Assembly (NCBI GenBank): GCA_964429275.1
Contig: CAYSBJ010000003.1
Coordinates: 64,906 to 128,905, forward strand
Direction: 5' to 3'
Length of the DNA: 64,000 nucleotides
From: an uncultured Pseudomonadota bacterium
GTDB taxonomy: Bacteria; Babelota; Babeliae; Babelales; JAUPTZ01
Under the pieces are notes generated by a model, which saw nothing but the letters and a program-made list of their open reading frames with translations, was not told the origin of the DNA and did no database searches. A program made the position numbers and the translations under genes. Positions 10,952 through 61,163 of the stretch are shown in pieces; position 1 is the stretch's first letter, and each line of letters begins with the position of its first letter.

Positions 10952-12757
10952 ATGGCGCTTACCAATGTATCCTTACAAAGTCCTACTCGATATCTCTTGT
11001 CCTATGTGATTCGTAAGCCGGTACAGTTGGCGCTTGCCATCATGTGCACCGTCATTAACAAAGTTGCTGATATTTTGCCAGAAGTGCTGATTGGTATTGC
11101 AATTGACGTGGTAACGGGCTCTGGAAGTCCGATTTTAACGAATTGGGGTTTCACTTCACCGCGAACGCAGCTCGTAATTTTGGCCGGTGTAACCATTATG
11201 ATTTGGATCGCTGAATCGGTATTTGAGTTTTTATACATTGTGTTGTGGGGCCGAATAGCGCAGCGCGTGCAGCGTGAAGTGCGAAGTGATGCGTATGCAC
11301 ATATTCAAAAGCTACCGCTCTCTTTCTTCAATACTATGCGTATTGGACGGCTAACTTCGATTTTGAACGATGATATTAACGAGTTCGAGTATATCATTGG
11401 TGCGGCCCGTGACCAAGGTTTTAGTGGTATCATTCAATTGGTGCTCAGTACCCTTATGATTGGTGCCATTTTCTTTTACATCTCTCCGCAAATTGCGCTT
11501 ATTGCGATGATGCCAATTCCATTTGTTGCTGCTCTTGGTATATTTTTCCGCGAGCGTATTTCTAGTGCCTATGGCATTGTACGCGAAATGGCAAGTACTA
11601 TTGCCAGTGAAGTGAGTCATAATATTGGTGGAATTATGGCGATCAAAGGTTTTGGTACTGAAGAGTATGAAAAGCGTCGCATTCAAAAAGCGGGGCGCGA
11701 TTACGAGCGTGCAAGTGTTTATGCCGTATATATGAATGGTATGTTTGCACCGTTGGTACGTGTGTTTGTGTTGACTGGTTTTGTATATACCCTCATTAAA
11801 GGTGGTATGTTGGTATTTGATGGTCATATAGCCGTTGGTTCCTACAGTATGCTTATTTTCTTAACGCAGCGACTTATTTGGCCGTTTACCGGTCTTGCTG
11901 GAATCCTTGATTCGTATGAACGGAGTATGTCCTCGGTACGACGGCTTCTAGAAATTGTGCGTATGCCAATTGATCCGTCGTATGAAACACGGGTGAAAGA
12001 CCACGCGTCTCAAGAAACGATTTCAGAAGGTGAAGTGGTTTTTAATGAAGTTTCATTTGGTTACAATGCTTCTCGTCCAGTACTTCGTAAATTGTCGCTT
12101 ACTATTCCGCCGCAAAAAACAGTAGCATTTGTGGGGCAAACCGGTTCTGGTAAGAGCACCATTATCAAACTGCTGATGCGCTTGTATCACGTACAAAAGG
12201 GTGAAATTACTATTAACGGCACACCGCTTTCTGAAATGTCATTGGAAACCCTCCGTTCTTCAGTAGGCTTTGTTGGGCAGGAATCATTTATTGTGCCGGA
12301 TACGGTTGCGAACAACATTCGATATGGTGCTTTTGACTTGCCGATTGAGCAAGTGAAGGAGGCGGCAAAAGCAGCTCAAATTCATGATTTTATTCTTTCT
12401 TTGCCAGAAAAATACGATACGCATATTGATGAAAGTGGCAAGCAATTGTCCGGTGGACAGCGGCAGCGTATTATGCTTGCGCGTGCCTTGGTGCGTAATC
12501 CTGATGTCTTGATTCTTGATGAAGCAACATCAGCAGTCGATAATGAAACAGAGTTGGCACTCAGTCATATGCTTCGCTCGCTGCAACATTCCATGACTAT
12601 CATCATGATTGCACACCGTTTGACGACGGTACGGCACGCTGACATTATTTTTGTGCTGGATAAAGGGCTGATTGTTGAATCTGGCTCACACGATCAATTA
12701 TTAAAGAAAAAAGCGGTTTACGCTCGTTTATGGCGTTCACAATCAGGGGAAGATTAA
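10952..12757 (+). CDS. ABC exporter, fused permease/ATP-binding protein (MsbA/MdlB-like)
   Basis: Six-TM N-terminal half. Walker A 'GQTGSGKST', signature 'LSGGQRQRIMLARAL', Walker B 'LILDEATSAVD', H-loop 'IAHRL'. Confidence 0.85.
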   Translation: MALTNVSLQSPTRYLLSYVIRKPVQLALAIMCTVINKVADILPEVLIGIAIDVVTGSGSPILTNWGFTSPRTQLVILAGVTIMIWIAESVFEFLYIVLWGRIAQRVQREVRSDAYAHIQKLPLSFFNTMRIGRLTSILNDDINEFEYIIGAARDQGFSGIIQLVLSTLMIGAIFFYISPQIALIAMMPIPFVAALGIFFRERISSAYGIVREMASTIASEVSHNIGGIMAIKGFGTEEYEKRRIQKAGRDYERASVYAVYMNGMFAPLVRVFVLTGFVYTLIKGGMLVFDGHIAVGSYSMLIFLTQRLIWPFTGLAGILDSYERSMSSVRRLLEIVRMPIDPSYETRVKDHASQETISEGEVVFNEVSFGYNASRPVLRKLSLTIPPQKTVAFVGQTGSGKSTIIKLLMRLYHVQKGEITINGTPLSEMSLETLRSSVGFVGQESFIVPDTVANNIRYGAFDLPIEQVKEAAKAAQIHDFILSLPEKYDTHIDESGKQLSGGQRQRIMLARALVRNPDVLILDEATSAVDNETELALSHMLRSLQHSMTIIMIAHRLTTVRHADIIFVLDKGLIVESGSHDQLLKKKAVYARLWRSQSGED

Positions 12758-12840
12758 TTTTTTTTAAAAACCATGCTTGCGCCTATACCGTTTTTTCGAC
12801 TACGCTTGCCGCCACATTAATTTGAAGAAAGGAAGAATTC

Positions 12841-13638
12841 GTGAATGAGAGGGCACGCTGGCGGCATCGTCGGACGTTATACAGTATTATTGTGGGGCTT
12901 ATTGTAGTTGGTCTTTCCGTGCATGTGTATGGGCGTGTAGCCGCATGGGCATATCGCCACTACGCAGTGACTTCGTATGTGGTTGTTTCTCAAAATCTTG
13001 ATGAAGCAACAATGAGTGCCGTGAGCGATTGGTTTGATGAGCAAAAAGAAGCAGGGCGCTTAGCGCATCCGGATTATGAAAAGTTAAATGCAGAGCTGGT
13101 GCATACGTTTCCGTTAGTCGGGTTAACCGTGTGGTCTCGGTATAATCCAACCTGTTTGACCTGCAAAATGAGAGGTGTTGAACCGGTATTTCGAGTAAAT
13201 AAATATTATGTTGCCGGTGACAATGGTCGCCTGTATCGCAACAACATGTTCAGTACGTTGCCTTCAGACTTGCCCCGTATGCGGGTGAATCACTCCTGGC
13301 TGGAGGCTGATCGATTTGGTCAAGTATATGCCTTTTATAGGGGGCTACCAGCAGAGTTTTTGAAAACCTATGACTGTATCTATCGTGATCCACATACCGT
13401 GGTTGTTTCGCCAAAAGCGTCGCTTGATTTGCCACATCGTTGCGTCTGCCTTGTTGATGATCGTAGTGTGTCTTTACTGCCGGATATGGTAGCTCTGATG
13501 AGTTCATGTCAAGTGTTACGCGATGATCATAGGCAACCGACCGACGATACGGTTTGCTTCTTCGATTTTCGTTTTTCTGGCCGCGTTATTAGTAAATGTA
13601 TTACACACCAAGAGTGTGCGCAGCTACAAAGGGTATGA
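12841..13638 (+). CDS. ftsQ: cell division protein FtsQ-like
   Basis: Basic N-terminus plus a single TM ('LYSIIVGLIVVGLSVHVYG'). It sits immediately upstream of ftsA and is translationally coupled to it by an ATGA overlap at 13635-13638. The call rests mainly on synteny. Confidence 0.6.
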   Translation: MNERARWRHRRTLYSIIVGLIVVGLSVHVYGRVAAWAYRHYAVTSYVVVSQNLDEATMSAVSDWFDEQKEAGRLAHPDYEKLNAELVHTFPLVGLTVWSRYNPTCLTCKMRGVEPVFRVNKYYVAGDNGRLYRNNMFSTLPSDLPRMRVNHSWLEADRFGQVYAFYRGLPAEFLKTYDCIYRDPHTVVVSPKASLDLPHRCVCLVDDRSVSLLPDMVALMSSCQVLRDDHRQPTDDTVCFFDFRFSGRVISKCITHQECAQLQRV

Positions 13639-14906
13639 TAATGAATGCGATGCCAGCAATGACCGACTATATAACTGCTATTGATATTGGTACTACCAAA
13701 ATTTGTGTGCTCATTGGGCAGGTTTTGCCTCATGGTGCGGTGGAGATAGTGGGTATTGGGCGTTATCCTTCCTACGGGTTGAAAAAAGGCATCGTGGTGA
13801 ATATGAGTGCAACTGTCGAGTCAATCAAGCGGGCGCTGCAAGAAGCAGAAACGCAGGCCGGCGTCCGGGTGCAAAAGGCTATTGTCGGCATTGCCGGTAG
13901 TCACATAAAATCATTTAATTCTACTGGCGTTGTGGGCATTTCTCGCCCCGATGTCACACAGTATGATATTGATCGCGTTATTGAGGCAGCAAAAGCAATT
14001 CCAATTCCCCAAGATCGTGAAATTTTACACGTGTTGCCACAATATTTTCGTGTTGACGGTCAAGAATATGTACAGGATTCTTTGGGGATGCATGGCGTTC
14101 GATTGGAAGCGCATGTGCATATTGTGACGGGTGCTATTTCTTCGGCGCAAAATATTATCAAAGCAGTTGAGCTTGCCGGTGTTGAGGTGGTTGACATTGT
14201 GTTGGAGCAGTTAGCTTCGGCGCAGGCGGTGCTCACGCCGTCTGAGCAGGAATTAGGCGTTGGTATTTTGGATATCGGCGGCGGGACGGCCGACTTTGCT
14301 ATCTATAAAGACGGGCGCATTCGCTATTCAAAAGTCTTTCCCGTAGCGGGTAATCACTTTACCAATGATCTTGCTATTGGCCTTGGCATTCCCATTGACC
14401 AAGCAGAAGAAATAAAGAAAAATTTTGGCTGCGTGACAGAACAAGCATACAAAGAATTAGGCGTGCTGCGTTCCACCGTGGCGCTTGACTATGACGGCGG
14501 GAGCAAAGAGGTAGACACGTATTTGTTGTACGAAATTTTGCAGCCACGAGCGGAGGAAATTTTTTCCTTCGTGCGCGAAGAAATTGTTGCCAATCGTTTA
14601 ACTAACTTGATGCCGTCCGGCTTTGTCTTGACTGGCGGTGGTGCACTTTTGCGTGGGCTACGCCAGCTGGTACAATCTACGTTGCAGGTGCCAGTGCGGA
14701 TTGGCTCGCCGCGGTATTATTTTATGCCAGGGGATGATCAGAAGGGGGTGCCTGAGGTGTTGCGCTCGCCGCAGTATGCGACGGCATACGGCTTGTTGGC
14801 TTTTGGGTTGAAAGATAATAAAACGTTTTGGCATAGTTCGAGTGAAGCGCCGTTGCTGTCGCGGGTATTGCAGCGAATGAAGACATGGATTTACGACTTT
14901 TTATAG
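13635..14906 (+). CDS. ftsA: cell division protein FtsA
   Basis: Actin-like ATPase motifs 'AIDIGTTKICVLIG' and 'ILDIGGGTADFAIY', with 'LTGGGALLRGL'. The start was moved to the ATG at 13635. Confidence 0.9.
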   Translation: MIMNAMPAMTDYITAIDIGTTKICVLIGQVLPHGAVEIVGIGRYPSYGLKKGIVVNMSATVESIKRALQEAETQAGVRVQKAIVGIAGSHIKSFNSTGVVGISRPDVTQYDIDRVIEAAKAIPIPQDREILHVLPQYFRVDGQEYVQDSLGMHGVRLEAHVHIVTGAISSAQNIIKAVELAGVEVVDIVLEQLASAQAVLTPSEQELGVGILDIGGGTADFAIYKDGRIRYSKVFPVAGNHFTNDLAIGLGIPIDQAEEIKKNFGCVTEQAYKELGVLRSTVALDYDGGSKEVDTYLLYEILQPRAEEIFSFVREEIVANRLTNLMPSGFVLTGGGALLRGLRQLVQSTLQVPVRIGSPRYYFMPGDDQKGVPEVLRSPQYATAYGLLAFGLKDNKTFWHSSSEAPLLSRVLQRMKTWIYDFL

Positions 14907-42292: not shown

Positions 42293-44302
42293 ATGTCATT
42301 GAAGAAAACCTTCTACATCACCACACCAATCTACTACGTAAACGCGAAGCCACACATTGGTACTTTGTATTCAACATTGCTTGCCGACGTGCTTGCACGA
42401 TGGCAACGATTTAATGGTAAGGAGGTGTACTTCCTTACTGGTACCGATGAGCATGGCCAGAAAATTGCGCAGCAAGCTGCTGTTGCTGAAATGGCACCGC
42501 AGCAGTTCGTTGATCAAATGATTCCTGCATTTCAGGCGGTGTGGCAGCGTTATGAATTGTCGTACGATCGATTTATTCGTACAACAGAATTGGCGCATAA
42601 GCAAACGGTAGTCCGATGGATTGATCAGTTGATCGCCAAGGGAGATATTTACAAAGCTCGCTATGAAGGTTTGTATTGTGTGCCATGTGAAACGTTTGTG
42701 ACACAAGAGCAGGCGTTGCCGGGTGAAGATGCGCCTTTGTGTCCAAGTTGTACTCGCGGTTTGCAAAAAATTAGTGAAGAAAATTACTTCTTCAAGCTGT
42801 CTGCGTATCAAGAGCGGCTTTTGGCTTTTTATGAGCAGAACCCGAATTTTATTCATCCTAAAGAGCGCATTAATGAGATCTTGTCTTTTGTAAAAGGAGG
42901 GCTCAAAGACCTCAGTATTTCGCGTCGTACGGTGGAATGGGGTATTCCATTCCCGAGTGATCCTGAGCACACCGTGTACGTCTGGGGGGATGCTCTCATG
43001 AACTATGTGAGTGGGCTTGGTTACTTGCACACGGGGCCGGACGCGGGCACTCGTTTTGCTCAATTTTGGCCGGCCGATGTGCAGGTGATGGCAAAGGATA
43101 TTGTAAAGTTTCATGCCGTCTATTTTCCCGCTTTTTTGATGGCGGTTGGTGTACAGCCGGCGCGTCGGTTGTTAGTGCATGGCTATTTGCTTGTTGATAA
43201 CAATAAAATGTCAAAATCAAAAGGAAATGCACTTGATCCAGTTGAGCTTGCAGACCAGTTTGGCGTTGATCAAATTCGCTTTTATTTAGTCCGCCATATG
43301 CCAACCAATCATGACGGGAACATTAGTATTCCTGATATTGTGAGTCGTATTGAAAGTGATTTAGCAAACAACCTTGGTAACCTATTGCAGCGGGCAGCGT
43401 CTCTGGCGCTGAAGTATAGTGCGACAGAAATTGTGCCGCAAAAAAAATGGTCAGAGCACAGTATGGCTTTGCGTGAAGCGTGCATGGAAATGCTTAGTGA
43501 GTTTCAGGTGCTTATGGATGGTTTGCAGATGTCGCAAGCTTATGGTGCGTTGTGGGCTTTTATTACGAAAGTAAACGTTTACTTTCATGAAATGGAGCCG
43601 TGGAAAAAAGCGAAAGAAGATCCTGCTCATTTTGCAGAAACACTTGCTGCAGCTGCACAAAGCTTGTATATCGTTGGGCACTTAATTAGTCCGGTTATGC
43701 CGTATAAGTCAAAGCAGTTATTAGCTTCTCTTGGTCATACGTTGATGGCGAAAAAAGAGGCAGTTTTTGCCTGTGCGTGGAATGTACCATGCACCTATTT
43801 TGTACCGCGTGAGCCATTGTTTGTTCGCCCGGAATTACCAGATATGTATAAGACGGCTGAAGTAGTGGCGGAGATCGCAGCTGCGTCGGCGAAGCCTGCG
43901 GCACTCAAAGTTGCTGCCACCTCGAGTGATGTCGCGAAGAAAGAAGGCTTGCCCGCCGAAACGTTAGCGAAGGAGGGCCTGATTACTATTGACGATCTTA
44001 TCAAAGTTGAGTTGGTGGTAGGGCGTATCGTTTCCTGTGTTCGTGTGGAAAAATCAGACAAGATGCTGTGCATGCAAGTTGACTTAGGTAGTTACGGCAA
44101 TCGTCAGATTTTGGCTGGCGTTGGCCAGTCGTTTACTCCAGAACAACTTGCCGGTCGTTCTGCTCTTTTTGTGGCAAATTTACCACCGCGCAAAATGATG
44201 GGCATGCTTTCACAGGGTATGATGTTGGTTGCCAAGCAGGATGAGAAAATATCGCTTGTGAGTGTTGATGAGGCTATTTTGCCGGGTGCTCGACTCTGCT
44301 AG
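42293..44302 (+). CDS. metG: methionine--tRNA ligase with a C-terminal tRNA-binding (EMAP-like) domain
   Basis: HIGH 'KPHIGTLYS', KMSKS 'KMSKSKGN', a Zn knuckle 'CVPCE..CPSC', and C-terminal 'KVELVVGRIVSCVRVEKSDKMLCMQVDLG'. Confidence 0.95.
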   Translation: MSLKKTFYITTPIYYVNAKPHIGTLYSTLLADVLARWQRFNGKEVYFLTGTDEHGQKIAQQAAVAEMAPQQFVDQMIPAFQAVWQRYELSYDRFIRTTELAHKQTVVRWIDQLIAKGDIYKARYEGLYCVPCETFVTQEQALPGEDAPLCPSCTRGLQKISEENYFFKLSAYQERLLAFYEQNPNFIHPKERINEILSFVKGGLKDLSISRRTVEWGIPFPSDPEHTVYVWGDALMNYVSGLGYLHTGPDAGTRFAQFWPADVQVMAKDIVKFHAVYFPAFLMAVGVQPARRLLVHGYLLVDNNKMSKSKGNALDPVELADQFGVDQIRFYLVRHMPTNHDGNISIPDIVSRIESDLANNLGNLLQRAASLALKYSATEIVPQKKWSEHSMALREACMEMLSEFQVLMDGLQMSQAYGALWAFITKVNVYFHEMEPWKKAKEDPAHFAETLAAAAQSLYIVGHLISPVMPYKSKQLLASLGHTLMAKKEAVFACAWNVPCTYFVPREPLFVRPELPDMYKTAEVVAEIAAASAKPAALKVAATSSDVAKKEGLPAETLAKEGLITIDDLIKVELVVGRIVSCVRVEKSDKMLCMQVDLGSYGNRQILAGVGQSFTPEQLAGRSALFVANLPPRKMMGMLSQGMMLVAKQDEKISLVSVDEAILPGARLC

Positions 44303-45858: not shown

Positions 45859-46446
45859 TTACACTTTTCTCATTGCCTGCAGCAAAATATGCAAGTCAGA
45901 TTCTGCAATGGTTGTGATGGCTTGGATTACAACCCATTGAACGGGGTCGTAGGGTGGAGTTGTAAGTGTGCCGTTGTAGTGCCAGCCGGTTGTTTTTTCT
46001 GGAATAAGTGCGCGTGGCGCAAGAGTACAGCTCCCTTCACTACTGGTTGCAAGAGTGGCAAAAAGTGGTTGATAAGAAGTGGTTGTCCGGCTACTGCTTC
46101 CCATGAAAACTCCAATAACTGCATAGTGACCATCTTCTGTTTGGTGCACAAAGTGCCATTCCAGTGTATGACGTAGGCTGTCGATGGTATGTTCGCTTGG
46201 CGCATGTACATGCATCTGGCGAAATTCGTATGTCTCGTTATTAATCGTAACAAATGCTTTTTGTTCATTGAGCGGGGATACCGAGGCAGTGAGTACCGAG
46301 CCGTTAATCGTACTGGTGACGGCAAGGTCAAAAAGCATGTCCTCTGGATAGTTGAAATGAATGTTGGCCCCATGGCTATTTGGTCCACCGGCAATATTGA
46401 TCGGGGAGGTGGAATGCTCGGAAGCAATAAAGTTTTTCTTTTTCAT
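45859..46446 (-). CDS. alpha-class carbonic anhydrase (short form)
   Basis: Zn ligands 'MHVHAPSEHT' (H-x-H) and 'EWHFVH', with 'YNGTLTTPPYDPVQWVV' corresponding to 'Y.GSLTTPPC.E.V.W'. It is only 195 aa, and I recognised no signal peptide. Confidence 0.75.
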   Translation of the reverse strand: MKKKNFIASEHSTSPINIAGGPNSHGANIHFNYPEDMLFDLAVTSTINGSVLTASVSPLNEQKAFVTINNETYEFRQMHVHAPSEHTIDSLRHTLEWHFVHQTEDGHYAVIGVFMGSSSRTTTSYQPLFATLATSSEGSCTLAPRALIPEKTTGWHYNGTLTTPPYDPVQWVVIQAITTIAESDLHILLQAMRKV

Positions 46447-49039: not shown

Positions 49040-49303
49040 AATAATTTCCTTTCAATAGAGGTTTATTCTCTAGGCGCAGCGCTGTAAGCGTTAAGACCAA
49101 AGCCTGCGCAGGCAAAGCCTAGCGCATTGTGGGGTGCAACGCAAACTCAGAAATCCTCATTGATTTTTCCTCTAATTACTTTAGGATATTTGCTTAATAT
49201 TGAATATAATATGGGGATATTTGCTTGTTTTTATGTACGTACGAGTTTTTACGTAAAAGCAAGGCTAAGTATCTTTCTTAGGGTATATAATGAGGACTGG
49301 AGT

Positions 49304-50215
49304 ATGCAGAAAGTTATTAGATATACGTATAAGCTGATTTTTATTATTGCTGGGCTTGTCTGTTTAAGCGGGTTCAATACGTTACGAGGGGCCGACCATA
49401 GAGTAGCCGTGGCCAATTTTAAAAAAAAAATTACGTCTTTGGTTAATTTAGCGAGTCAGTATAAGAGGGCCTTTAAGGCTGCAGGAAGTAAGACGGCAAA
49501 AGCAAATTTTTTCACTCCTAATTTACACAAATTAGCACAGGAATTGTTGAAGGACTTTCCTGCAGATCGTGTTAAAAGCTTGCGTTTATCTCCGTCTGAG
49601 CAAAAAGAAATTATTAGAAAAATATTTTTAACGTTTATCATTTTTAAAAAGAGAAGTAACAACTCTCAATGTGATAAGCCTGACAAAATAGCAGAATCTA
49701 TACGATATAAATTAGTTGAGTACTGCTTTGACGCGTTTTCTTTTGATGATGACGAGTGCGAAGAGAAGAATGAGGTTGGTTTTATTGTCAAGCTTTTTCT
49801 GAAGAGCGACAGTCGGACTACCCGCGCGTCATTGTTTTTGCTGGCCGCCATGAATAATTGTTTGAGCCGGCCTTCTATTAAGAATTGTCCAAGAAAAGAG
49901 GAGGCTTTGAGTTTTTGTTCTACTCGTTTGGCGTGGGTTGAGGGCCATCGAGTTGCTTGCTCCCCTCTTACACAAGCAGCGGGGCCCGACGTGGTACCGG
50001 CGGAAGCTTGCTCCCCTCTTACACAAGCAGCGGGGCCTGACGTGGTACCGGCGAAAGATGGCGTTGAGTGTGATGTTGGACTGGACGGAGTTGACTTGAC
50101 AGATGAAGCTCTTCTGTCAGTGTTTAGTGATGAATATGTCCCGGTGCAGGTAGACCCTGTACGTAAGTCAAGCAGGAAGAAGAGGCGGACTCTTGGCTGG
50201 ACGGAGGCGCCCTAG
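49304..50215 (+). CDS. hypothetical secreted protein with a 17-aa tandem repeat
   Basis: The start was moved to the ATG at 49304 (MQKVIRYTYKLIFIIAGLVCLSG). It contains two 51-bp tandem copies (49955-50056) encoding 'ACSPLTQAAGPDVVPA(E/K)'. Confidence 0.5.
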   Translation: MQKVIRYTYKLIFIIAGLVCLSGFNTLRGADHRVAVANFKKKITSLVNLASQYKRAFKAAGSKTAKANFFTPNLHKLAQELLKDFPADRVKSLRLSPSEQKEIIRKIFLTFIIFKKRSNNSQCDKPDKIAESIRYKLVEYCFDAFSFDDDECEEKNEVGFIVKLFLKSDSRTTRASLFLLAAMNNCLSRPSIKNCPRKEEALSFCSTRLAWVEGHRVACSPLTQAAGPDVVPAEACSPLTQAAGPDVVPAKDGVECDVGLDGVDLTDEALLSVFSDEYVPVQVDPVRKSSRKKRRTLGWTEAP

Positions 50216-50256: not shown

Positions 50257-51525
50257 ATGATGAAAGAAAAAGTACTATCAACCCCTTTATCTCGGTATTT
50301 TCCGGCGCTTGTTTCCTCAGATGAGGCCGGCGGGAAGTGTTATTTTGACAGTGCTGCAACCGCCTGCACGGTGGCTCCTGTGATTGAAGCGATGACTGCT
50401 TTCTACGAACAGGCGCGCGGCAGCGTACATCGTGGTGTATATGAAAGTGCTGAGCGCACGACGAGTCACTTTGAACAGGTCCGGCAAGATGTTGCAGAAT
50501 TCATAAATGCTCAATCAAGTAACGAAATAATTTTTACTTCCGGTGCAACGGATAGCCTTAATACCGTAGCGTACGTATGGGCCCAGCATATTTTGGAGCC
50601 GGGGGACGGTATTATCATTACTCAAGCAGAACACCACGCTCACTATGTCTTGTGGCATGAAGTGGCTCGTCGCCTGGGCGCCCATGTGTATGTTTTGCCG
50701 ATTGATCCTGGCACCTATTGTGTAGATATTTCTGCTCTTGATCATATTCTTACTAAATCAATCAAAATTTTTGCGGCTACTACCAGTTCCAATGTGCTTG
50801 GTCCCATTTGGGGAGTGGGTGATAGTCTCCTTCATCGCGCTATTGCCAAAGTACGCGCACAAGGAGTTGGGGTAGTTCTTGATGCCGCTCAAACAGTAGC
50901 GCACCAGCCGATCAATGTTGAAAAATTGGACTGTGACTTTCTTGCTTTTTCGGTGCACAAAATGGGCGGACCAACCGGGCTTGGTATTCTGTATGCTTGC
51001 AAGAGTATGCATAAGCACATGAAACCCTATCGGTTTGGTGGCGGAATGGTTGCTGCGGTGACCAGTGAGTTTATGACCTGGCAAGCGGCCCCGCATTGTT
51101 ATGAGGCCGGTACGCCGCCAATTGCGCAGGTAGTTGGTCTGGGAGCGCTTCTTAAGTTCTATAAAGAAAAGGTAGATTTTCCAGGGCTCAAAGAGACAGA
51201 GGCTGCCTTGTGCGCTCAGTTGATACGTGGTCTCAAAACTATCCCTGGTCTTCACATTGTAGGGAATGCCGACCTACTTTCTCGCGAAGGGCATGTAGTG
51301 AGTTTTTATTTAGACGATATTCATGCACATGACTTGGCCTCAAGTCTTGGTCAATATGGATGCGCAGTGCGTGCCGGTGACCATTGTGCACAGCCGCTGT
51401 CTGCTCTCTGGGGCAAAAAAGCTACCGTACGTGCGAGCTTCTTTATGTATAATTCTGCTGCGCAAGTGCAGCGTCTTATTTGTGCGATAGAAGGATGCGT
51501 CGCTCAATGGCGAAAGCTTTTATGA
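50257..51525 (+). CDS. sufS: cysteine desulfurase, SufS/class V aminotransferase
   Basis: PLP lysine in 'FSVHKMGGPTGLGILY' and the active-site Cys in 'RAGDHCAQPL'. It is followed by sufU with an ATGA overlap. Confidence 0.9.
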   Translation: MMKEKVLSTPLSRYFPALVSSDEAGGKCYFDSAATACTVAPVIEAMTAFYEQARGSVHRGVYESAERTTSHFEQVRQDVAEFINAQSSNEIIFTSGATDSLNTVAYVWAQHILEPGDGIIITQAEHHAHYVLWHEVARRLGAHVYVLPIDPGTYCVDISALDHILTKSIKIFAATTSSNVLGPIWGVGDSLLHRAIAKVRAQGVGVVLDAAQTVAHQPINVEKLDCDFLAFSVHKMGGPTGLGILYACKSMHKHMKPYRFGGGMVAAVTSEFMTWQAAPHCYEAGTPPIAQVVGLGALLKFYKEKVDFPGLKETEAALCAQLIRGLKTIPGLHIVGNADLLSREGHVVSFYLDDIHAHDLASSLGQYGCAVRAGDHCAQPLSALWGKKATVRASFFMYNSAAQVQRLICAIEGCVAQWRKLL

Positions 51526-51890
51526 CAGGTGCCATGTTAGTACATGATGAACTGATCGATCACTATAAGTTCCCGCGTCATCGTGGCGAAATCAAAGAGC
51601 CGCATTTTGCAGCAGCGTTATTAAATCAATCATGTGGCGACCGTATATCTGTTACCGGTCGGATGGCTGATGGCGTAATAGCATCGTGCGCGTTTCAAGG
51701 CGAAGGATGTGTTCTGAGTCAAGCGGCAGCGTCGATGTTAATGGAGTATATTCATGGTAAATCGCCGGCAGATATTGCCGCTATTGATGCTGCCTATATG
51801 CAAGCTCGTGTTGGCGTAACTGTGGGGCCCACGCGACTTCGCTGCGTTCTATTGGCTCTTGAGACGCTGAGAAAAGCGCTGACGCCGTAG
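51522..51890 (+). CDS. sufU: SufU/IscU-like Fe-S cluster scaffold/sulfur acceptor
   Basis: Three conserved Cys residues in 'NQSCGD', 'GEGCVLSQAAASM' and 'RLRCVLLALETL'. Confidence 0.85.
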   Translation: MTGAMLVHDELIDHYKFPRHRGEIKEPHFAAALLNQSCGDRISVTGRMADGVIASCAFQGEGCVLSQAAASMLMEYIHGKSPADIAAIDAAYMQARVGVTVGPTRLRCVLLALETLRKALTP

Positions 51891-53521: not shown

Positions 53522-54163
53522 ATGGACTATTCAGTGTTAATGTGGCTGCCGATATCGTTGTATGCGATAGCGCCATGGCCACAAGTGCGAACCAACTATC
53601 GAAGAGGCGACGCCGTCGGCTTGAGCCATTGGATGTTGTTTCTGCGGATTTTTGCTGTTTCAAGCTACACTGTGTATGTCTATCTACTTGACCTCCCGCT
53701 GGCACATAAGCTCTTGTATCCGATCTGTCTGTCTGGGCTCATTACACTTGCAATCCAAGGCTACTATTACGATCACCATCGGTCGGCGCAGCGCTGGTTG
53801 CGGTTTGCGTATTTCAAACAAATAACTGTTCTGGCGGCTCTGGTCGTCATGGGTTTCTGGTATCCAATTCAGGCCGGCATGTTGGCTGGCTGGTGCGCAG
53901 TGGTCACCGGTGTGATGTCTGATATGCCTCAGATTTACCGGAATTGGTGGCGAAAAAGTACGGTGGGGTTCAATATCCTCTTCTCTTCCGCCATTGGTTT
54001 TGGCGGTATTTGTGATTTAATCTTGTCTTTCGTGTACGGCTTGCCATTACCAACCATTCTGGCGACTGCCCGTGTAACGATCTGTTACTTCATTTATCTT
54101 ACTCAGTTCTTTGTGTATCGGCAGCGTGGGGCTGGTAATAGTGCGACGCCGATACAGAAGTAA
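53522..54163 (+). CDS. 7-TM PQ-loop repeat protein, paralog 1
   Basis: Two PQ motifs: 'APWPQVRTNYRRGDAVGLS' and 'MSDMPQIYRNWWRKSTVGFN'. ~7 hydrophobic segments. Confidence 0.7.
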   Translation: MDYSVLMWLPISLYAIAPWPQVRTNYRRGDAVGLSHWMLFLRIFAVSSYTVYVYLLDLPLAHKLLYPICLSGLITLAIQGYYYDHHRSAQRWLRFAYFKQITVLAALVVMGFWYPIQAGMLAGWCAVVTGVMSDMPQIYRNWWRKSTVGFNILFSSAIGFGGICDLILSFVYGLPLPTILATARVTICYFIYLTQFFVYRQRGAGNSATPIQK

Positions 54164-54334
54164 TGGCCGATCGTTTAATGAGCGGCTCGGCGATGAGTTG
54201 CTGATTTTGTCTCCCGTAGCATAAAACTATATCGTTTCTCTTATCTCATTGGATACACTCCTTAAGTCTTTTGGCCATCATCCGCTTCATCGTGAGACAC
54301 GCTGTCGCTATGACCATTTTTAAGGAATATCTGC

Positions 54335-54961
54335 ATGATACAATTAGCCGAATACATTGCCTGGGTTCCTATGCTGCTGTTTTGTGCCGCACCGTTGGCG
54401 CAGGTTTATCTTAACTGGCGTAAACAGTCTAGTAAGAGTCTGAGTCAATGGACTGTATTTTTGGGAATTTGTGGGCTTCTCTGCTCGCTGCTCTATGACC
54501 ATTTTATGTGCTTGCCGCTTGCCTATCGTGTTATGCATCCGCTTATACTTTTTGCCTGGCTGACTTTGGCGCTTCAGGAGTTTTGGTATAGTGGGCGGAC
54601 GAAGGTGCGGATGAGTGTGGTATACAGCTATACTGTTGTGCTGGCGCTGGCGGCAGGAGCGTTGGTCTGGGGGCGTTGGTATCCCCTTGAGATTGGTTTT
54701 ACAACTGGCTGGCTTTTTACGATTTTGTATGCCATCTTCCAGCTTCCGCAAATTGTGAAAAATCAGCAGGCGCGGAGTGTTGAGGGATTGAGTTTTTGGT
54801 ACGTTTCCATGCTGGGCGCGGCTGCATGTGCAGAGCTTGGTATTGCGTTTATGCGTTTGTTGCCGCTGCAAAGTGTGTTGAGTGCGGTGCGTGGTGTGTT
54901 GGTGTACGGCATATTTGTCTATCAGTTTGCATCATTTAGTCGCAACCCGAGAAAGGAATAA
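54335..54961 (+). CDS. 7-TM PQ-loop repeat protein, paralog 2
   Basis: 'AAPLAQVYLNWRKQSSKSLS' (first motif is AQ) and 'IFQLPQIVKNQQARSVEGLSF'. Confidence 0.7.
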   Translation: MIQLAEYIAWVPMLLFCAAPLAQVYLNWRKQSSKSLSQWTVFLGICGLLCSLLYDHFMCLPLAYRVMHPLILFAWLTLALQEFWYSGRTKVRMSVVYSYTVVLALAAGALVWGRWYPLEIGFTTGWLFTILYAIFQLPQIVKNQQARSVEGLSFWYVSMLGAAACAELGIAFMRLLPLQSVLSAVRGVLVYGIFVYQFASFSRNPRKE

Positions 54962-54969
54962 GAAAGTAT

Positions 54970-55611
54970 ATGGGTGAATTAAGTGTTATTTCTTACGGTT
55001 GGCTTGCCTGGGTCCCTTTTACGATTCAGTATTTTGCAGGGATGCCTCAGATCCTGTTGAACTATCAAAATCATTCGACCGCTGGACTCAGCTATCGAAT
55101 GGTCTTCTTTGATTACACCGGTAATTTAGCAACGACAATGTACACCTTTTTGTTGGTTCTTCCGCTTGCTTGCCGCGTTATGGAACCGCTTTGTTTGTTT
55201 AATATAGGCCTACTGGTGGCACAGTGTTTTTATTACTGCCGTGAGAAAGAGTCGCGCCAGTTCTTGGTTGCCTCGTATGCCACACTTCACGTAGTCGCCG
55301 GCCTCCTGTTGACGATTGCTTGGTGGTATCCAGCCGCTATTGGCAATGCAATGGGATGGATTTCGGTTGTGGTACAAATATTTACTCAGCTGCCGCAGGT
55401 GCTCAAAAACCATGCACGCAAAAGCGTAAAAGGGCTGAGCTTTGCCTATATCTCACTGCTTGGCTTTGCGGGGCTCATGGAGACGGTAATCTCTTTCTTA
55501 CTTGATTTGCCCATCCAGAACGTGTGTAATGGTCTGCGTGCGGTGGGCTATTATCTTGTGTTGTGTTACCAGTTTCGGCGCTACTCGGTACGCGCTGCAG
55601 CAATATCTTAA
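54970..55611 (+). CDS. 7-TM PQ-loop repeat protein, paralog 3
   Basis: 'FAGMPQILLNYQNHSTAGLSY' and 'IFTQLPQVLKNHARKSVKGLSF'. Confidence 0.7.
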   Translation: MGELSVISYGWLAWVPFTIQYFAGMPQILLNYQNHSTAGLSYRMVFFDYTGNLATTMYTFLLVLPLACRVMEPLCLFNIGLLVAQCFYYCREKESRQFLVASYATLHVVAGLLLTIAWWYPAAIGNAMGWISVVVQIFTQLPQVLKNHARKSVKGLSFAYISLLGFAGLMETVISFLLDLPIQNVCNGLRAVGYYLVLCYQFRRYSVRAAAIS

Positions 55612-55618
55612 GATAGGC

Positions 55619-57913
55619 TTACTGCTTGCCCTCAGCAGCTTTAATAGCCTCCCCCAGGGGATCGGTGAGAGAGCTATGATCGGGAATCCCGTACCCATAA
55701 TTGTAGATCTCTGTACGAATCCTCTTAGCGGCGGCCAGGTCAGTCAGCGTTATTGGTTGCTTCTTAGCAAGCTCAATAAGCTCGATGGCTTCTAGGCCTG
55801 TTTTTAGTTCGTAAAGGAGCGTCGGCTTTGTTGTGAAAAGCGTCGCTAGCTTATTGGCTATTTGCTGAGCAATAGGATCATCTTGTGCGGTTTTCTGTAT
55901 TAGCTCAAATGCTGCGGTGAAGGAAGCCGATTCTGCTTTTAAGGGCAGTTCGCCATACGTATTGCCGTAGAGCGCATTCCATTTGGTGCAAACCTCAGTG
56001 TAGTACCTGCATTTGCCTTCTAAGGAGGCATCGCCGCTTTCTACGTACAAGCTGCCATTCTCCGGGTTTCTTTGTAAAGGAATGGGAATGTTATCATCAG
56101 AAAGCTCACTTAGGAACTTGCTACCGCTTTCCTCGAGTGACGCCTCTTCCTCCTCTATCTCGTCAAGGCGGCTCTGCATTATATCATCTATTTTCTGAAT
56201 TGCAGTCTTGACTCCTGGGAGGGTAAGCTTTCCTATAAAGTGCTTAAATTCCTCGCTCGTGTCGTATACCTTGCCGCCATCAGACATGTCAGCGACTTTA
56301 GTTTCGAACATGTTTATTACGCTGCTCACTAAAGCCTCGTGGATTGCTCTTAAATCGTTAGCGAATGTTTTCGTCATCTCATTATCCACGATATCTTTTG
56401 GTAGAGTTTTCAGAGATTTATTAATTACGTCAGCTTTCGAGAGGCGCTGCTCGGAATCATCCATTATCAGTGGATCATGGAGCTCCTCGGTGTACAGGGT
56501 GAGAAGGCGGCTAAGTGCACTTTCTTTCATAAGCTTCATAACTTCTGTAGTAAATGGTCGGTTTTGGGCATTCGTTGGGCTCCTCTTCAGGAATTGTTCT
56601 AAGTCGCTTGAGTTGTCCTTGGCAGATAAATCTTTTTGTATCTCCTGTAAGAATTGGCTTAAGAGTTTTTCCTTGAATTCTTTCAAAGCTGTGGCGGCAC
56701 GAGAATCTGGAGAAAGTTTGCTTAGAAGTGCGCTAATCTCTTCTCCTTTTTGAAATACAATATTCACGTCGACTTGGTTGGTTTTATCCTCCAGGTCTCT
56801 AACGAATTGTTCAAAATCTGCTATCTGTTGTTGTATCTCAGGGGTGATTGAGGAATCTGCTGCACTTGCGTTTGTCGTCAACAAGGGAGTATCTTCGTCT
56901 GTAGGCTTTACTGTCTCGTGTTTTCCTGAAGGGCTTTGGTCGTCCGCGTTCGGCACCACGGAAGTCGTAGTCGGCTTCAACTGTATGTCTTTATCATCTC
57001 GAACAGAGTTCGCGGGCTGCGGGTTTTGAACTACGCTTGAGTCCTTTCCAGTAGGTTTTACTTGGGGGAGAGTCGTATGAACGGGCTTTGCAAGGCTTGT
57101 TCGAGGAGATACGTCTTTCGCATCTGGATTTTTTAGTGTTTTAGTATGTTCTGTGACGGGTGCAGTAACTCTCATAGAAGTTTTTTGTTCTTCTCGGCTC
57201 TCTGCTTTTGTGACTTCCGGTTCAGCGTTCACGAGGTTATCAGGAGTCTCTGCAGCAGGTTTTGCTTGAGGGAGTGGCACGGCCCTAGGGGTGCGCATTG
57301 GGTTTGTAGAAGTTTGGCTGGGTTCAGTGTTTTCTGTGCCAGGTGCAGTAACTCTGATAGGAGTCTCTTGTTTTTCTGGGCTCTCTGCTTCTGTGACCCC
57401 CGGTTTAGCCTCTATCGGGTTATCATTAGTCTCTTCGGCAAAATTTGGTAGTGGCGTATCTGAGCTGGCGCTGACTGCATTGCTTTCGTTGCCTCCAGTG
57501 TCGTTCGTATTGCTTTCTTGAGCATGTACGGTTATTGACGGATCCTGTTTTGGCGATGTTTGTTCTTTAGCGTAGCCATAGCCATTGAACTCAACACCTC
57601 CCGCAAGGATGAATGGTAGGAGGCTGCCGAGGATTAATTGCGTTGTAACAGCGCGATTTTCTTTTTTGAAAAGTCTTTTGAGTTTAGCTTTGCTGAGTTT
57701 GCCACTTTTAAACAAGTAGGCCAAATTCAGGAGGCCAACGGCACCAAGTCCTGCAGCATACGTATGGCGATGCGTCTTGAGGTGGGTGTTCAGTGTGCCG
57801 AGTGCTGAGTCTTCTGTGCTGGCATCAGCGGCAGAGGGAGTGGTGTGCAGGTTGTTGGTGGCAAGTGCTGTAATGAGCAGTAGAGAAAGTAGGCGCAAGT
57901 GCTTGATATTCAT
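55619..57913 (-). CDS. bilobed-hydrophobic-module family protein (member C)
   Basis: The N-terminal 139 aa are identical to member D. Module 'HLKTHRHTYAAGLGAVGLLNLAYLFKSGKLSKAKLKRLFKKENRAVTTQLILGSLLPFILAGGVEFNGYGY'. A 183-bp tandem repeat lies at 57148-57445. The C-terminus is helical. Confidence 0.65.
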   Translation of the reverse strand: MNIKHLRLLSLLLITALATNNLHTTPSAADASTEDSALGTLNTHLKTHRHTYAAGLGAVGLLNLAYLFKSGKLSKAKLKRLFKKENRAVTTQLILGSLLPFILAGGVEFNGYGYAKEQTSPKQDPSITVHAQESNTNDTGGNESNAVSASSDTPLPNFAEETNDNPIEAKPGVTEAESPEKQETPIRVTAPGTENTEPSQTSTNPMRTPRAVPLPQAKPAAETPDNLVNAEPEVTKAESREEQKTSMRVTAPVTEHTKTLKNPDAKDVSPRTSLAKPVHTTLPQVKPTGKDSSVVQNPQPANSVRDDKDIQLKPTTTSVVPNADDQSPSGKHETVKPTDEDTPLLTTNASAADSSITPEIQQQIADFEQFVRDLEDKTNQVDVNIVFQKGEEISALLSKLSPDSRAATALKEFKEKLLSQFLQEIQKDLSAKDNSSDLEQFLKRSPTNAQNRPFTTEVMKLMKESALSRLLTLYTEELHDPLIMDDSEQRLSKADVINKSLKTLPKDIVDNEMTKTFANDLRAIHEALVSSVINMFETKVADMSDGGKVYDTSEEFKHFIGKLTLPGVKTAIQKIDDIMQSRLDEIEEEEASLEESGSKFLSELSDDNIPIPLQRNPENGSLYVESGDASLEGKCRYYTEVCTKWNALYGNTYGELPLKAESASFTAAFELIQKTAQDDPIAQQIANKLATLFTTKPTLLYELKTGLEAIELIELAKKQPITLTDLAAAKRIRTEIYNYGYGIPDHSSLTDPLGEAIKAAEGKQ

Positions 57914-58020
57914 AGAGAATCCCCGGCTAATTGTATAGTATTCTATGGTTTATTCTACACTATTTGAGTAAAAGAACGCAAATGATTGTGGTTTTTTACC
58001 GGCAAAAATAGTGTCTACTC

Positions 58021-59556
58021 TTACGCAGGATTTTGGATCACGAACGCTTCGCCATTCCACTGGAAGCCAGCCTTTATAAGCTTGTCGATCTTCTGAAGAA
58101 TGGGATGCTTCAGAAGCTCTTGCTGCCAATTAGGGCGCTCCTCACGTATTTGGATCTCATTAAAAAAATTAAAAGTTCTATTACGCGGAGAACTTTCCTT
58201 TTCAAAGCTGTGGCGAGTGGTGTCATGTCCTTGTGCAAGAGTCAATAAATCTTGAAGAAACTCCACCGCGTGATCTATATCCGAGATTGGGAAATCACTA
58301 TCCCCACCATAATCGGGATTTCCTAGCCAATTGGCCACGAGCGGAAAAGCTATTGGGTTATGAGGTAACTGTTCAACGACCGTACCTGCATTGTCTTTGA
58401 TTTCTCTTGCTATTGCCTCAAGCTTACCAGGTTCTGCTTTGAGATTTAGAATTAAGGAGTCTACTGCCAGTTTTTTAGTTGCCGCCCATTTTAGAGCTAT
58501 CTGAGATGTCGTCAATTCCTTTTCGCGTTGCAGCGACTTGGATAGCTGCGAGAGAGTTTCTATTTTTTTCTGCAGAGAATCACCGGCTTCTTTTTCCTTG
58601 AGCTCGCTCCATTTTCTGAGCATGCGATTGTGGATAGGATTAAATATATTTTTGAGCCAGTCTTTAATTTCATGGTTATGTACTGTCGAATCAAAACAAC
58701 CCTTTATCGTGGCTGTCTCAATGAGGTAGAGCGCTTGTTCGTCGATTTCAGCAACCTCAGTGCATGTATCAAGTCGTTTTGCAAATTCTTCAGTGTGCGC
58801 CATACGCTCTTCTATGGTTGGTGAAGATGCTTCAGCAGAGGCATCTTCTCCGTGGCGCGCGGCCGCTTTTTCGGTTTCCTCAGTGACGATTTCTGTGCTT
58901 TGCGCTACGCGCGGCACTCTGCCGCGCGTCTCTGCAGCAGGTTCTGTTGCCGGCATATTGGAGGTGGCGCTGGCAGGATCACTTTCGTTGTCTTCAGTAT
59001 CACTTTCGTTGTCTTCAGCGTCGTCCGTTTCTTCGACGGCTTCATTGCTGGTGTTTTGAATCTTAGAAGTAAGTGGCAAGGGGCTGCTTAGTGGTAGCAT
59101 ATTGGAGGTGGCGCTGACTGCATCACCTTCGCTGCCTCCAGTGTCGTTCGTATTGCTTTCTTGAGCATGTACGGTTATTGACGGATCCTGTTTTGGCGAT
59201 GTTTGTTCTTTAGCGTAGCCATAGCCATTGAACTCAACACCTCCCGCAAGGATGAATGGTAGGAGGCTGCCGAGGATTAATTGCGTTGTAACAGCGCGAT
59301 TTTCTTTTTTGAAAAGTCTTTTGAGTTTAGCTTTGCTGAGTTTGCCACTTTTAAACAAGTAGGCCAAATTCAGGAGGCCAACGGCACCAAGTCCTGCAGC
59401 ATACGTATGGCGATGCGTCTTGAGGTGGGTGTTCAGTGTGCCGAGTGCTGAGTCTTCTGTGCTGGCATCAGCGGCAGAGGGAGTGGTGTGCAGGTTGTTG
59501 GTGGCAAGTGCTGTAATGAGCAGTAGAGAAAGTAGGCGCAAGTGCTTGATATTCAT
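58021..59556 (-). CDS. bilobed-hydrophobic-module family protein (member D)
   Basis: It has the same N-terminal module as member C, then an acidic linker and an unrelated helical C-terminal domain. Confidence 0.65.
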   Translation of the reverse strand: MNIKHLRLLSLLLITALATNNLHTTPSAADASTEDSALGTLNTHLKTHRHTYAAGLGAVGLLNLAYLFKSGKLSKAKLKRLFKKENRAVTTQLILGSLLPFILAGGVEFNGYGYAKEQTSPKQDPSITVHAQESNTNDTGGSEGDAVSATSNMLPLSSPLPLTSKIQNTSNEAVEETDDAEDNESDTEDNESDPASATSNMPATEPAAETRGRVPRVAQSTEIVTEETEKAAARHGEDASAEASSPTIEERMAHTEEFAKRLDTCTEVAEIDEQALYLIETATIKGCFDSTVHNHEIKDWLKNIFNPIHNRMLRKWSELKEKEAGDSLQKKIETLSQLSKSLQREKELTTSQIALKWAATKKLAVDSLILNLKAEPGKLEAIAREIKDNAGTVVEQLPHNPIAFPLVANWLGNPDYGGDSDFPISDIDHAVEFLQDLLTLAQGHDTTRHSFEKESSPRNRTFNFFNEIQIREERPNWQQELLKHPILQKIDKLIKAGFQWNGEAFVIQNPA

Positions 59557-59834
59557 CGAGAATCCCCGGCTAAATTTATAGTATTCATGGTTTATTCTAC
59601 ACTATTTGAGTAAAAGAGCGCAAATGATTGTGGTTTTTAGTCGCGCAAGCGCACCACCTTTATCAAAGAGCGTGAAGCCCTTTGGGGGGGGGGGATGCGG
59701 TTTGGCCGCATGAAGGAAATATATGCTAGAATCAAGGCTTGAGTGGCTGCGTATTGGTCAATGGTATCTTTTTATTTAAGATTACTTATATGCTTAAGAT
59801 AGTACTGTGGTTGGTTGTTTTTGAGAGGAGCTCT

Positions 59835-60791: not shown

Positions 60792-60879
60792 CTGGTGGAG
60801 AGAGAGGGATTCGAACCCCCGATGCCTTTCAACATAACGGTTTTCAAGACCGCCGCATTCAACCGCTCTGCCATCTCTC
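60792..60879 (-). tRNA. tRNA-Ser (anticodon UGA)
   Basis: Minus-strand read: GGAGAGATGGCAGAGCGGTTGAATGCGGCGGTCTTGAAAACCGTTATGTTGAAAGGCATCGGGGGTTCGAATCCCTCTCTCTCCACCA. It has a long variable arm, a T-loop GTTCGAATC and an encoded CCA. Confidence 0.9.
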
Positions 60880-60914
60880 CATGAATGTACATATTTTTGT
60901 TTGCCCGTAGGCGA

Positions 60915-61006
60915 ATGGTGGAGAGAGAGGGATTCGAACCCTCGATACCCTTTTCAGAGTATACGCACTTAGCAGGCGCGCGCTTTCGACCGCTCAGCCA
61001 TCTCTC
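60915..61006 (-). tRNA. tRNA-Ser (anticodon GCU)
   Basis: Minus-strand read: GGAGAGATGGCTGAGCGGTCGAAAGCGCGCGCCTGCTAAGTGCG...GGGTTCGAATCCCTCTCTCTCCACCA. The anticodon loop is CTGCTAA, with a long variable arm and an encoded CCA. Confidence 0.9.
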
Positions 61007-61086
61007 CATACCGTAGAATTTCGTTTTCACGAATATTATTACACATATTTTATAGACCGCAAGTTCGCATAAACTTGTTTTAAGAA

Positions 61087-61163
61087 TGGTGCGCCCAATA
61101 GGAGTCGAACCTATAACCGCCAGATTCGTAGTCTGGTACTCTATCCAATTGAGCTATGGGCGC
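61087..61163 (-). tRNA. tRNA-Arg (anticodon ACG)
   Basis: Minus-strand read: GCGCCCATAGCTCAATTGGATAGAGTACCAGACTACGAATCTGGCGGTTATAGGTTCGACTCCTATTGGGCGCACCA. It aligns arm by arm with E. coli tRNA-Arg(ACG). Confidence 0.92.

Follow-up and report, generated by a model that had tools for sequence, protein, structure and literature searches.

What do three consecutive genes for small membrane proteins do behind an aminopeptidase gene in the genome of an uncultured bacterium? The genes, here called PQ1, PQ2, and PQ3, lie in a stretch of 64 kilobases (kb) of contig CAYSBJ010000003.1, which was analysed as a whole and is called the window below. A first-pass annotation had noted three open reading frames (ORFs) of 208 to 213 amino acids following pepA, with coordinates that proved exact (Table 1), and had read them as two-motif PQ-loop proteins with about seven transmembrane (TM) helices that might be eukaryote-like carriers for amino acids or cystine. 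We find that PQ1, PQ2, and PQ3 are lineage-expanded carriers that belong to an already known kind of PQ-loop protein. As for their task, we give an even chance to the reading that they are monomeric seven-helix PQ-loop secondary carriers in the cytoplasmic membrane, which import host-derived amino acids and whose paralogs are specialised by substrate charge.

The assignment to the PQ-loop proteins rests on sequence profiles and predicted structures alike. All three proteins match the Pfam family PF04193 in two stretches each, with whole-protein scores of 65-86 bits, all above the cutoff of 22 bits (the gathering threshold) and well outside what chance would give. Both Pro-Gln dipeptides, in TM1 and TM5, are present in PQ1 and PQ3, and the motifs quoted in the first-pass annotation are found in PQ3. 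In PQ2, AQ replaces PQ at residues 24-25 in repeat 1, with PQ kept in repeat 2. AlphaFold2 models were made of PQ1 and PQ3; PQ2 aligns to both with large gaps absent. The model of PQ1 (predicted local distance difference test score, pLDDT, 91.9; predicted TM-score, pTM, 0.86) has seven helices after breaks at the PQ kinks are bridged, and that of PQ3 (pLDDT 87.7, pTM 0.84) has seven helices at residues 3-34, 42-61, 66-88, 93-117, 121-150 (with a kink at the second PQ), 158-177, and 182-212. Helix boundaries were taken from the AlphaFold2 models, as crude hydropathy windows failed to separate the tightly packed helices.

When the two models were compared with the Protein Data Bank (PDB) by Foldseek, cystinosin ranked first for both (8dyp, 7zk1, and 8dke; E 3e-6 to 1e-4, TM-score ~0.67). 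For PQ3, the cystinosin match had an E-value of 3e-6 and a TM-score of 0.68; for PQ1, the E-value was 9.5e-6, and OsSWEET2b was matched at a TM-score of 0.69. Cystinosin was followed by eukaryotic SWEETs and the KDEL receptor, the full-length seven-TM matches having TM-scores of 0.65-0.70, while three-TM SemiSWEETs covered only one half of either model. Both the models and the full-length matches show seven TM helices arranged as two three-helix bundles joined by an inversion helix, TM4. Neither an unrelated family nor a topology of fewer than six to seven helices emerged from these searches, and in every feature of sequence and fold that was compared the proteins agree with the PQ-loop family (PF04193; TCDB 2.A.43-type seven-TM carriers).

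The KDEL receptor among the structural matches raises the question of whether the proteins are carriers at all. PQ2 has a weak match to ER_lumen_recept (E 0.0095), and the PQ-loop clan is known to include non-transporters (PMC3281891), so that KDEL-receptor-like binding, a helper role for lipid-linked sugars or phospholipids like that of MPDU1 or Cfs1, or delivery into host membranes might be envisaged. We consider such a role highly improbable: the KDEL receptor match falls under the Pfam cutoff and ranks after cystinosin and the SWEETs, the proteins lack signal or secretion features, hardly any of their sequence lies outside the membrane, and diversified arrays of several copies in a transporter-dependent parasite, as described below, better fit nutrient carriers.

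The distribution of Lys and Arg residues bears on how the proteins sit in the membrane. In PQ3, eight of these residues are found in predicted cytoplasmic loops and none in periplasmic loops, and the corresponding averages over 138 family members are 9.1 and 0.77. The residues are concentrated in the loops of the PQ motifs, in the TM3-TM4 loop, and at the C-terminus. Based on this distribution, and thus on the positive-inside rule only, the predicted orientation is N-out/C-in, with both PQ loops facing the cytoplasm.

To which PQ-loop proteins are they closest? An exhaustive HMMER search of 1.84 billion cluster representatives yielded 2166 proteins at E <= 1e-3, of which 430 remained at E <= 1e-10 and 103 at E <= 1e-30. 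Nearly all of the best 150 of these 2166 matches are 199-259 amino acids long and cover the whole profile, the remainder being shorter fragments; no long eukaryote-type protein is among these 150. Relatives carry the label "uncharacterized protein with PQ loop repeat" in the annotation of the Joint Genome Institute (JGI). In a word-indexed search with a profile of 138 sequences, this compact family came first, followed after a gap by fungal Ypq1/2/3 (RTC2) and PQLC2-like proteins at 80-100 bits. The family profile scored 57-60 bits against cystinosin and 26-34 bits against SemiSWEETs. By profile score, then, the family is closest to the PQ-loop proteins that carry amino acids.

These scores also bear on the idea that PQ1-PQ3 are SWEET-like facilitators, which would equilibrate uncharged host metabolites such as sugars, nucleosides, or vitamins across the membrane without ion coupling. 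The fold is shared with SWEETs (TM-scores of 0.65-0.70 to OsSWEET2b and AtSWEET13), those bacterial members of the superfamily that have been characterised transport sugars as uniporters, and import of sugars and nucleosides is needed by the host lineage of these genes, the Dependentiae, as well (PMC4776705, PMC6561590). We nevertheless find this explanation unlikely. No match to MtN3/SWEET (PF03083) was found in PQ1-PQ3 at E <= 0.01, the NCBIfam model NF037968 (SemiSWEET_2) gave 18.4 and 24.7 bits against a cutoff of 80, and the SemiSWEET profile scores are lower than those for cystinosin or Ypq. In addition, the family has intramembrane charges, both family-wide (E171 and R190) and by group (D48 and E72, or R48), which are more typical of amino-acid carriers and ion-coupled carriers.

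The preferred reading, import of amino acids, gains from the identity of the organism and from the conservation of the locus. A scan of species-representative genomes detected four loci, three of which belong to named Candidatus Dependentiae metagenome-assembled genomes. One of them (related loci are labelled here by L numbers), L005, shares 91-98% identity with the window in SufS, NifU, PepA, PQ2, and PQ3. Another family member bears an NCBI name from Candidatus Dependentiae; it was the only named record that cluster look-ups of more distant members gave. By these relationships, the window is part of a Candidatus Dependentiae genome. Dependentiae (TM6) live obligately as parasites or symbionts of protists; their genomes, of 1.0-1.5 megabases, do not encode complete amino-acid biosynthesis, and uptake is thought to be necessary for them (PMC4776705, PMC6561590). 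The PQ-loop family of this locus is mentioned in neither of these two reports, and no link of Dependentiae with PQ-loop proteins, cystinosin, or SWEETs was found in the literature searched.

PQ1, PQ2, and PQ3 share only 27-31% identity with each other. Between the window and locus L002, in contrast, the PQ orthologues are 74-79% identical (74% for PQ1), alongside 77% for PepA and 76% for SufS. Because the PQ proteins are thus conserved to the level of PepA and SufS, the comparison indicates purifying selection on these orthologues. Orthologues of PQ2 were found at 61-96% identity in L001-L003, L005, the metagenome loci L011-L015, and L018. A neighbour-joining tree built from every copy in the syntenic loci resolved position-specific orthogroups, ordered PQ1-PQ2-PQ3 along the array, and a fourth orthogroup, PQ4, which lies 3' of PQ3 in L010 and L004 and does not occur in the window. 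Arrays of two copies were found in L001, L003, and L014; of three in the window, L002, L005, and L012; of four in L010, L016, and L017; and of seven in L004. No additional PQ-loop copy was detected elsewhere in the window by a six-frame profile search. Judged from these comparisons, the array is ancient and its paralogs are old. A recent tandem amplification was also considered and is ruled out by the 27-31% identity among paralogs together with the collinear orthologues across genomes.

The gene pepA stands directly 5' of the array in every locus with a PQ3 orthologue and enough flanking sequence, and where the flank is longer, sufS and nifU precede it. The order sufS-nifU-pepA-PQ array is found in L001, L002, L004, L010, L012, L014, and L016. 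Several arrays contain damaged copies (Table 1): an internal deletion removes profile positions 100-165 from the PQ1 orthologue of L005, L008 and L009 contain frameshifted or split copies, and PQ2 is split in L018. These copies point to ongoing gene birth and death, with assembly error as another possible source.

Across the family, conserved columns (in PQ3 numbering, as used throughout) are Q27, N31, Q85, Y89, G125, G129, W130, P142, Q143, E171 (in TM6), P181, R190 (in TM7), and Q201. All sequences of the four named orthogroups have the Gln of the first PQ motif, as do 115 of 127 other members, and the second PQ motif is almost invariant. In the PQ2 orthogroup, Ala precedes the Gln of repeat 1 in 5 of 10 sequences; because half of the orthogroup has Ala here, the hinge proline of this repeat appears to be dispensable. 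Two further columns vary by orthogroup. Column 48, on TM2 (Arg42 in the numbering of PQ1), is Arg in all PQ1 sequences (12/12), Gly, Ala, or Leu in PQ2, Asp in all PQ3 sequences (27/27), and Tyr or Asn in PQ4. Column 72, on TM3, is hydrophobic in PQ1 and PQ4, His or Arg in PQ2, and Glu in PQ3, again in 27 of 27 sequences. PQ2 of the window has Gly at column 48 and His at column 72.

Characterised carriers give these positions a possible meaning. Column 48 lies at an offset of +22 from the Pro of the first PQ motif, the same offset at which Asp305 (human) or Asp191 (plant) of cystinosin lies from the second PQ motif, and in the HMMER alignment PQ3 Asp48 falls on the Asp of the segment LLDFTGG of cystinosin. 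This cystinosin residue, in TM6, binds the amino group of the substrate and participates in proton coupling (PMC9385667). In TM2 of plant cystinosin, Lys55 and His56 line the binding site and aid the recognition of cystine (PMC9385667); column 48 is one helical turn away from these residues on the same face of TM2. It would be a cavity-facing position. The luminal gate of cystinosin is formed by an Asp of TM3 paired with a Lys of TM7 (PMC9385667). Only PQ3 has both a Glu in TM3 and the family-wide Arg190 in TM7, each located close to the periplasmic end of its helix. Fungal Ypq-like proteins also have an Asp on the TM2 face, at an offset of +26, in 33 of 34 sequences.

The first-pass annotation had taken the threefold amplification as a sign of substrate diversification. 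The amplification turns out to be neither recent nor fixed at three, as the array is ancient and comprises two to seven copies; the diversification is borne out insofar as old paralogs carry group-fixed residues, which fits a diversification of substrates and not a dosage effect.

In the preferred reading, each protein would act as two three-helix bundles joined by TM4, with the N-terminus in the periplasm and the PQ loops in the cytoplasm. With the periplasm taken as the counterpart of the lysosome lumen, this would be the orientation of lysosomal cystinosin and PQLC2, and by analogy to these carriers small polar solutes would be moved inward by alternating access, driven by the membrane potential and/or by protons. 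Host-derived amino acids would be the likeliest substrates, because the organism cannot make amino acids. With Arg (PQ1), a small or neutral residue (PQ2), or Asp (PQ3) at the TM2 position, the three may serve distinct charge classes: anionic or carboxylate-rich substrates for PQ1, neutral substrates for PQ2, and cationic and/or proton-coupled substrates for PQ3. The TM3 Glu of PQ3 could pair with the family-wide TM7 Arg to form a pH-sensitive periplasmic gate, and PQ3 would be the likeliest of the paralogs for proton coupling and/or cationic substrates. Its acidic TM2 residue (Asp48, compared with the Ypq-like Asp at +26) is a hint of Lys, Arg, or His transport. What the analyses show directly is the family, the fold, the predicted topology, the taxonomic setting, the conserved array with its synteny, and the residues specific to each group; the transport direction, the substrate class, the coupling ion, and any functional link to PepA or SufS we infer from such comparisons.

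Several observations weigh against this reading. The similarity to Ypq and cystinosin is found at the level of repeats and is not collinear, which would make a transfer of substrates by homology weak. The positions discussed above were assigned from the sequence register, counted from the PQ motif, and not from superposed structures. At the locus itself, no riboswitch or other RNA element pointing to a substrate was found; at the gathering threshold, Rfam matches in the window were three transfer RNAs (tRNAs) only, and the spacer between PQ1 and PQ2 had no match. No regulator that would name a substrate was seen either. In published reconstructions of Dependentiae metabolism, uptake of amino acids and oligopeptides is attributed to ATP-binding cassette (ABC) systems (PMC6561590). 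The broken copies in relatives indicate that individual PQ copies are dispensable. Finally, two loci do not adjoin pepA: L008, with the order SecA-PQ-PQ-pseudogene-PQ-NurA, and L006, with the order DeoC-PQ-Peptidase_C11.

These two loci also delimit the proposed link between the carriers and the aminopeptidase. The adjacency to pepA that the first-pass annotation had noted is conserved in many related loci; the more distant members lie away from pepA. Because these members lose the link, the conserved unit is the array itself, and the adjacency to pepA is a feature of one clade and not obligatory. NurA lies downstream of the array in both L008 and L010, and because it is common to both, this suggests that the two represent one ancestral array, the upstream side of which was rearranged in L008. 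An obligatory coupling to pepA had been among the candidates considered; the members of L006 and L008 away from pepA rule it out.

Where did the seven-helix form come from? An acquisition from a eukaryote had been proposed; PQ1-PQ3 would then be carriers of the lysosomal type, orthologous to cystinosin or PQLC2, which the bacteria received from a protist host by horizontal transfer. The life of these bacteria inside protists would offer the opportunity, other eukaryote-like genes are found near the arrays of L006 and L010, along with a carbonic anhydrase in the window, and the nearest named matches outside the family are the fungal Ypq and PQLC2-like proteins. A transfer is nonetheless improbable in our view, and the searches lend it no support. 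No long eukaryote-type protein was among the best 150 of the 2166 matches of the exhaustive search, and both fungal repeats align within the second half of the family profile only, and Ypq is thus not collinear with it. Scores against the cystinosin model TIGR00951 are 27-44 bits against a cutoff of 192, and the equivalents of Lys280 and Asp305 are Thr/Leu, Ser/Ile, and Phe/Leu. The GC content of the PQ region is not deviant. The orthogroups are collinear across relatives with SufS only 51-76% identical, and any transfer would therefore be very old.

Comparison of isolated repeats by hhalign provides a further view of this question. Repeats 1 and 2 of the Dependentiae family score 92 against each other. 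Against Ypq, Dependentiae repeat 1 scores 73 with either repeat, and Dependentiae repeat 2 scores 88 with Ypq repeat 1 and 83 with Ypq repeat 2, and there is no correspondence of first to first or second to second repeats between Dependentiae and Ypq. Every Dependentiae-Ypq score is thus lower than that between the two Dependentiae halves. Because the halves resemble each other more than they resemble the Ypq repeats, these values, which are profile scores and not a phylogeny, give moderate evidence for an independent duplication, or for a very old split with symmetric constraint, rather than for a recent transfer of a eukaryotic seven-TM protein. A bolder version would hold that a bacterial three-TM unit was duplicated and fused in or before the Dependentiae, so that the seven-TM form arose independently; that the array is the main amino-acid uptake system; that its charge selectivity is set by column 48 (Arg, small or neutral, or Asp); and that PQ3 has converged on a cystinosin-like acidic pair for proton coupling. 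We offer this combination tentatively, as a possibility that is more doubtful than probable.

The features of the window and of the related loci are collected in Table 1.

Table 1. Coordinates of the PQ genes, their neighbours, and other features discussed in the text (positions in the window unless a related locus is named; aa, amino acids; nt, nucleotides)
Feature	Position	Strand	Evidence or remark
PQ1, 213-aa 7-TM PQ-loop protein	53522-54163	+	PF04193 in 2 stretches, 81.3 bits, E 4e-23
PQ1-PQ2 spacer, 171 nt	54164-54334		with weak terminator-like hairpin 54181-54202 (consensus scan only)
PQ2, 208-aa PQ-loop protein	54335-54961	+	PF04193 in 2 stretches, 65.1 bits, E 5e-18
PQ3, 213-aa 7-TM PQ-loop protein	54970-55611	+	PF04193 in 2 stretches, 86.2 bits, E 1e-24
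Class-V aminotransferase / cysteine desulfurase (SufS/NifS-like)	50257-51525	+	PF00266, E 1e-112
NifU/IscU-type Fe-S scaffold	51480-51890	+	PF01592, E 3e-18
M17 leucyl aminopeptidase PepA, 513 aa	51954-53495	+	PF00883, E 4e-118, plus PF02789
Methionyl-tRNA synthetase (MetRS) gene	42293-44302	+
195-aa ORF, eukaryotic-type (alpha) carbonic anhydrase	45859-46446	-	PF00194, E 7.5e-19
362-aa ORF from TTG, 5' of sufS	49127-50215	+	no Pfam match
764-aa ORF	55619-57913	-	no Pfam match
511-aa ORF	58021-59556	-	no Pfam match
DNA repeat of the 764- and 511-aa genes	57445-57744 and 59088-59387		96% identical
DNA repeat of the 764- and 511-aa genes, upstream	57945-57996 and 59587-59638		98% identical
Three-tRNA cluster	60793-61163	-	Ser-TGA, Ser-GCT, Arg-ACG
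L005, PQ1 orthologue	2871-3332		internal deletion
L008, damaged PQ copy	7249-7968		frameshifted/split
L008, damaged PQ copy	13264-13827		frameshifted/split
L018, PQ2	1927-2555		split
L010, RING-finger protein	13220-14644		zf-RING_2 / zf-rbx1
L006, ankyrin-repeat protein kinase	12520-14250

PQ1 starts 26 nucleotides past the stop codon of pepA, with an AGGAG Shine-Dalgarno motif 9 nucleotides 5' of its ATG, and PQ3 starts 8 nucleotides past PQ2. The longer spacer between PQ1 and PQ2 may be a boundary between two transcription units. A scan for promoters and terminators gave counts near the shuffled expectation, its sole feature being the weak hairpin 3' of PQ1. The score of PepA is marginally under the NCBIfam equivalog cutoffs for leucyl aminopeptidase. 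Orthologues of NifU are 114-124 amino acids long, so that translation of this gene probably begins downstream of the listed TTG. The ORF 5' of sufS carries the peptide ACSPLTQAAGPDVVPA as a direct tandem repeat of two units near its C-terminus, and a MetRS gene and a cluster of three tRNA genes are further landmarks of the window. An identical MetRS sequence is recorded in an NCBI assembly; for PQ3 and PepA no identical entry was found, probably because their starts are annotated differently.

Downstream of PQ3, two adjacent genes on the opposite strand encode proteins of 764 and 511 amino acids. Their first ~140 residues are identical, with a signal-like start and hydrophobic segments, while the C-terminal parts are unrelated; the repeats at the DNA level extend to a near-identical upstream region. 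The two look like a common promoter and N-terminal targeting module placed on different cargo domains, and possibly encode host-interaction proteins. Genes of eukaryotic type were also recorded: the alpha carbonic anhydrase of the window, a gene for a RING-finger protein a few kb from the array of L010, and one for an ankyrin-repeat protein kinase a few kb from the PQ gene of L006.

Dependentiae are widespread, almost uncultured parasites of protists. The conserved array provides concrete candidates for nutrient import in this group. With ~205 amino acids and almost no loops, the proteins are also attractive minimal models for substrate selection and proton coupling in PQ-loop carriers. The comparison of repeats bears on how the seven-helix SWEET/PQ-loop architecture arose from three-helix units; if it holds true that a bacterial lineage has its own fused form, the fusion would have happened more than once. 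Should the proteins be ordinary facilitators, the finding would amount to the correct annotation of a lineage-expanded transporter family. Within the literature searched, the new elements are the collinear array of two to seven copies across the Dependentiae, the charge-switched cavity residue, and the hint of an independent seven-TM fusion.

How do the proteins compare with known systems? The statement that the seven-TM form is characteristic of eukaryotes, from which the first-pass annotation had started, holds as a generalisation, yet prokaryotic members were already known: seven-TM PQ-loop proteins of unknown function were reported from "several prokaryota", e.g., Nostoc punctiforme B2JBF6 and Korarchaeum B1L4Q1 (Saudek 2012, PMC3281891). 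These are likewise full-length seven-TM members of the PQ-loop clan, set beside PQ1-PQ3 by description only. For prokaryotic seven-TM PQ-loop proteins, tandem arrays, Dependentiae members, and orthogroup-specific cavity residues are undescribed in the literature searched. SWEETs share the fold, as set out above. SemiSWEETs, the three-TM homodimeric sugar uniporters (4qnc, 4rng, and 4x5m), belong to the same clan, and each half of the models superposes on a protomer with a target TM-score of 0.8-0.85. Unlike these, the PQ proteins consist of two fused, diverged bundles and a linker helix in one chain, with conserved intramembrane charges.

Cystinosin (SLC66A4; TCDB 2.A.43, LCT family; 8dyp, 8dke, and 7zk1) is the best structural match over all seven helices and the best sequence match of the family profile in the PDB (57-60 bits), at an identity of 17-20%. 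It has the same two cytoplasm-facing PQ loops and N-out/C-in orientation, and PQ3 Asp48 stands at the offset of Asp305, though in the other repeat. The differences are no less clear. The cystinosin model TIGR00951 gives 26.6, 27.8, and 43.6 bits against a cutoff of 192.35, in partial matches at the PQ motif regions only. The essential pair formed by Lys280, three residues before the second PQ, and Asp305 is absent: PQ3 has Thr139 and Leu164 at these positions, where PQ1 has Ser and Ile and PQ2 has Phe and Leu. The proteins also have no N-terminal luminal domain: they begin 5-10 residues ahead of TM1, which starts at residue 3-6 in the models of PQ1 and PQ3. The earlier reading of the proteins as cystine carriers is not supported. 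Orthology to cystinosin, which was considered separately, is ruled out by the TIGR00951 scores, the missing Lys280/Asp305 pair, and the missing luminal domain.

PQLC2 and yeast Ypq1-3 (SLC66A1), the lysosomal and vacuolar carriers of cationic amino acids, are the top-scoring named homologues outside the family, at 80-100 bits. The eukaryotic proteins are larger (276-391 amino acids, with long loops, against 208-213 for PQ1-PQ3), and both Ypq repeats align only to profile positions 116-207, the second half, which makes the similarity one of repeats and not collinear. In common are the seven-TM, two-repeat plan and an Asp on the cavity face of TM2, which PQ3 carries one helical turn away.

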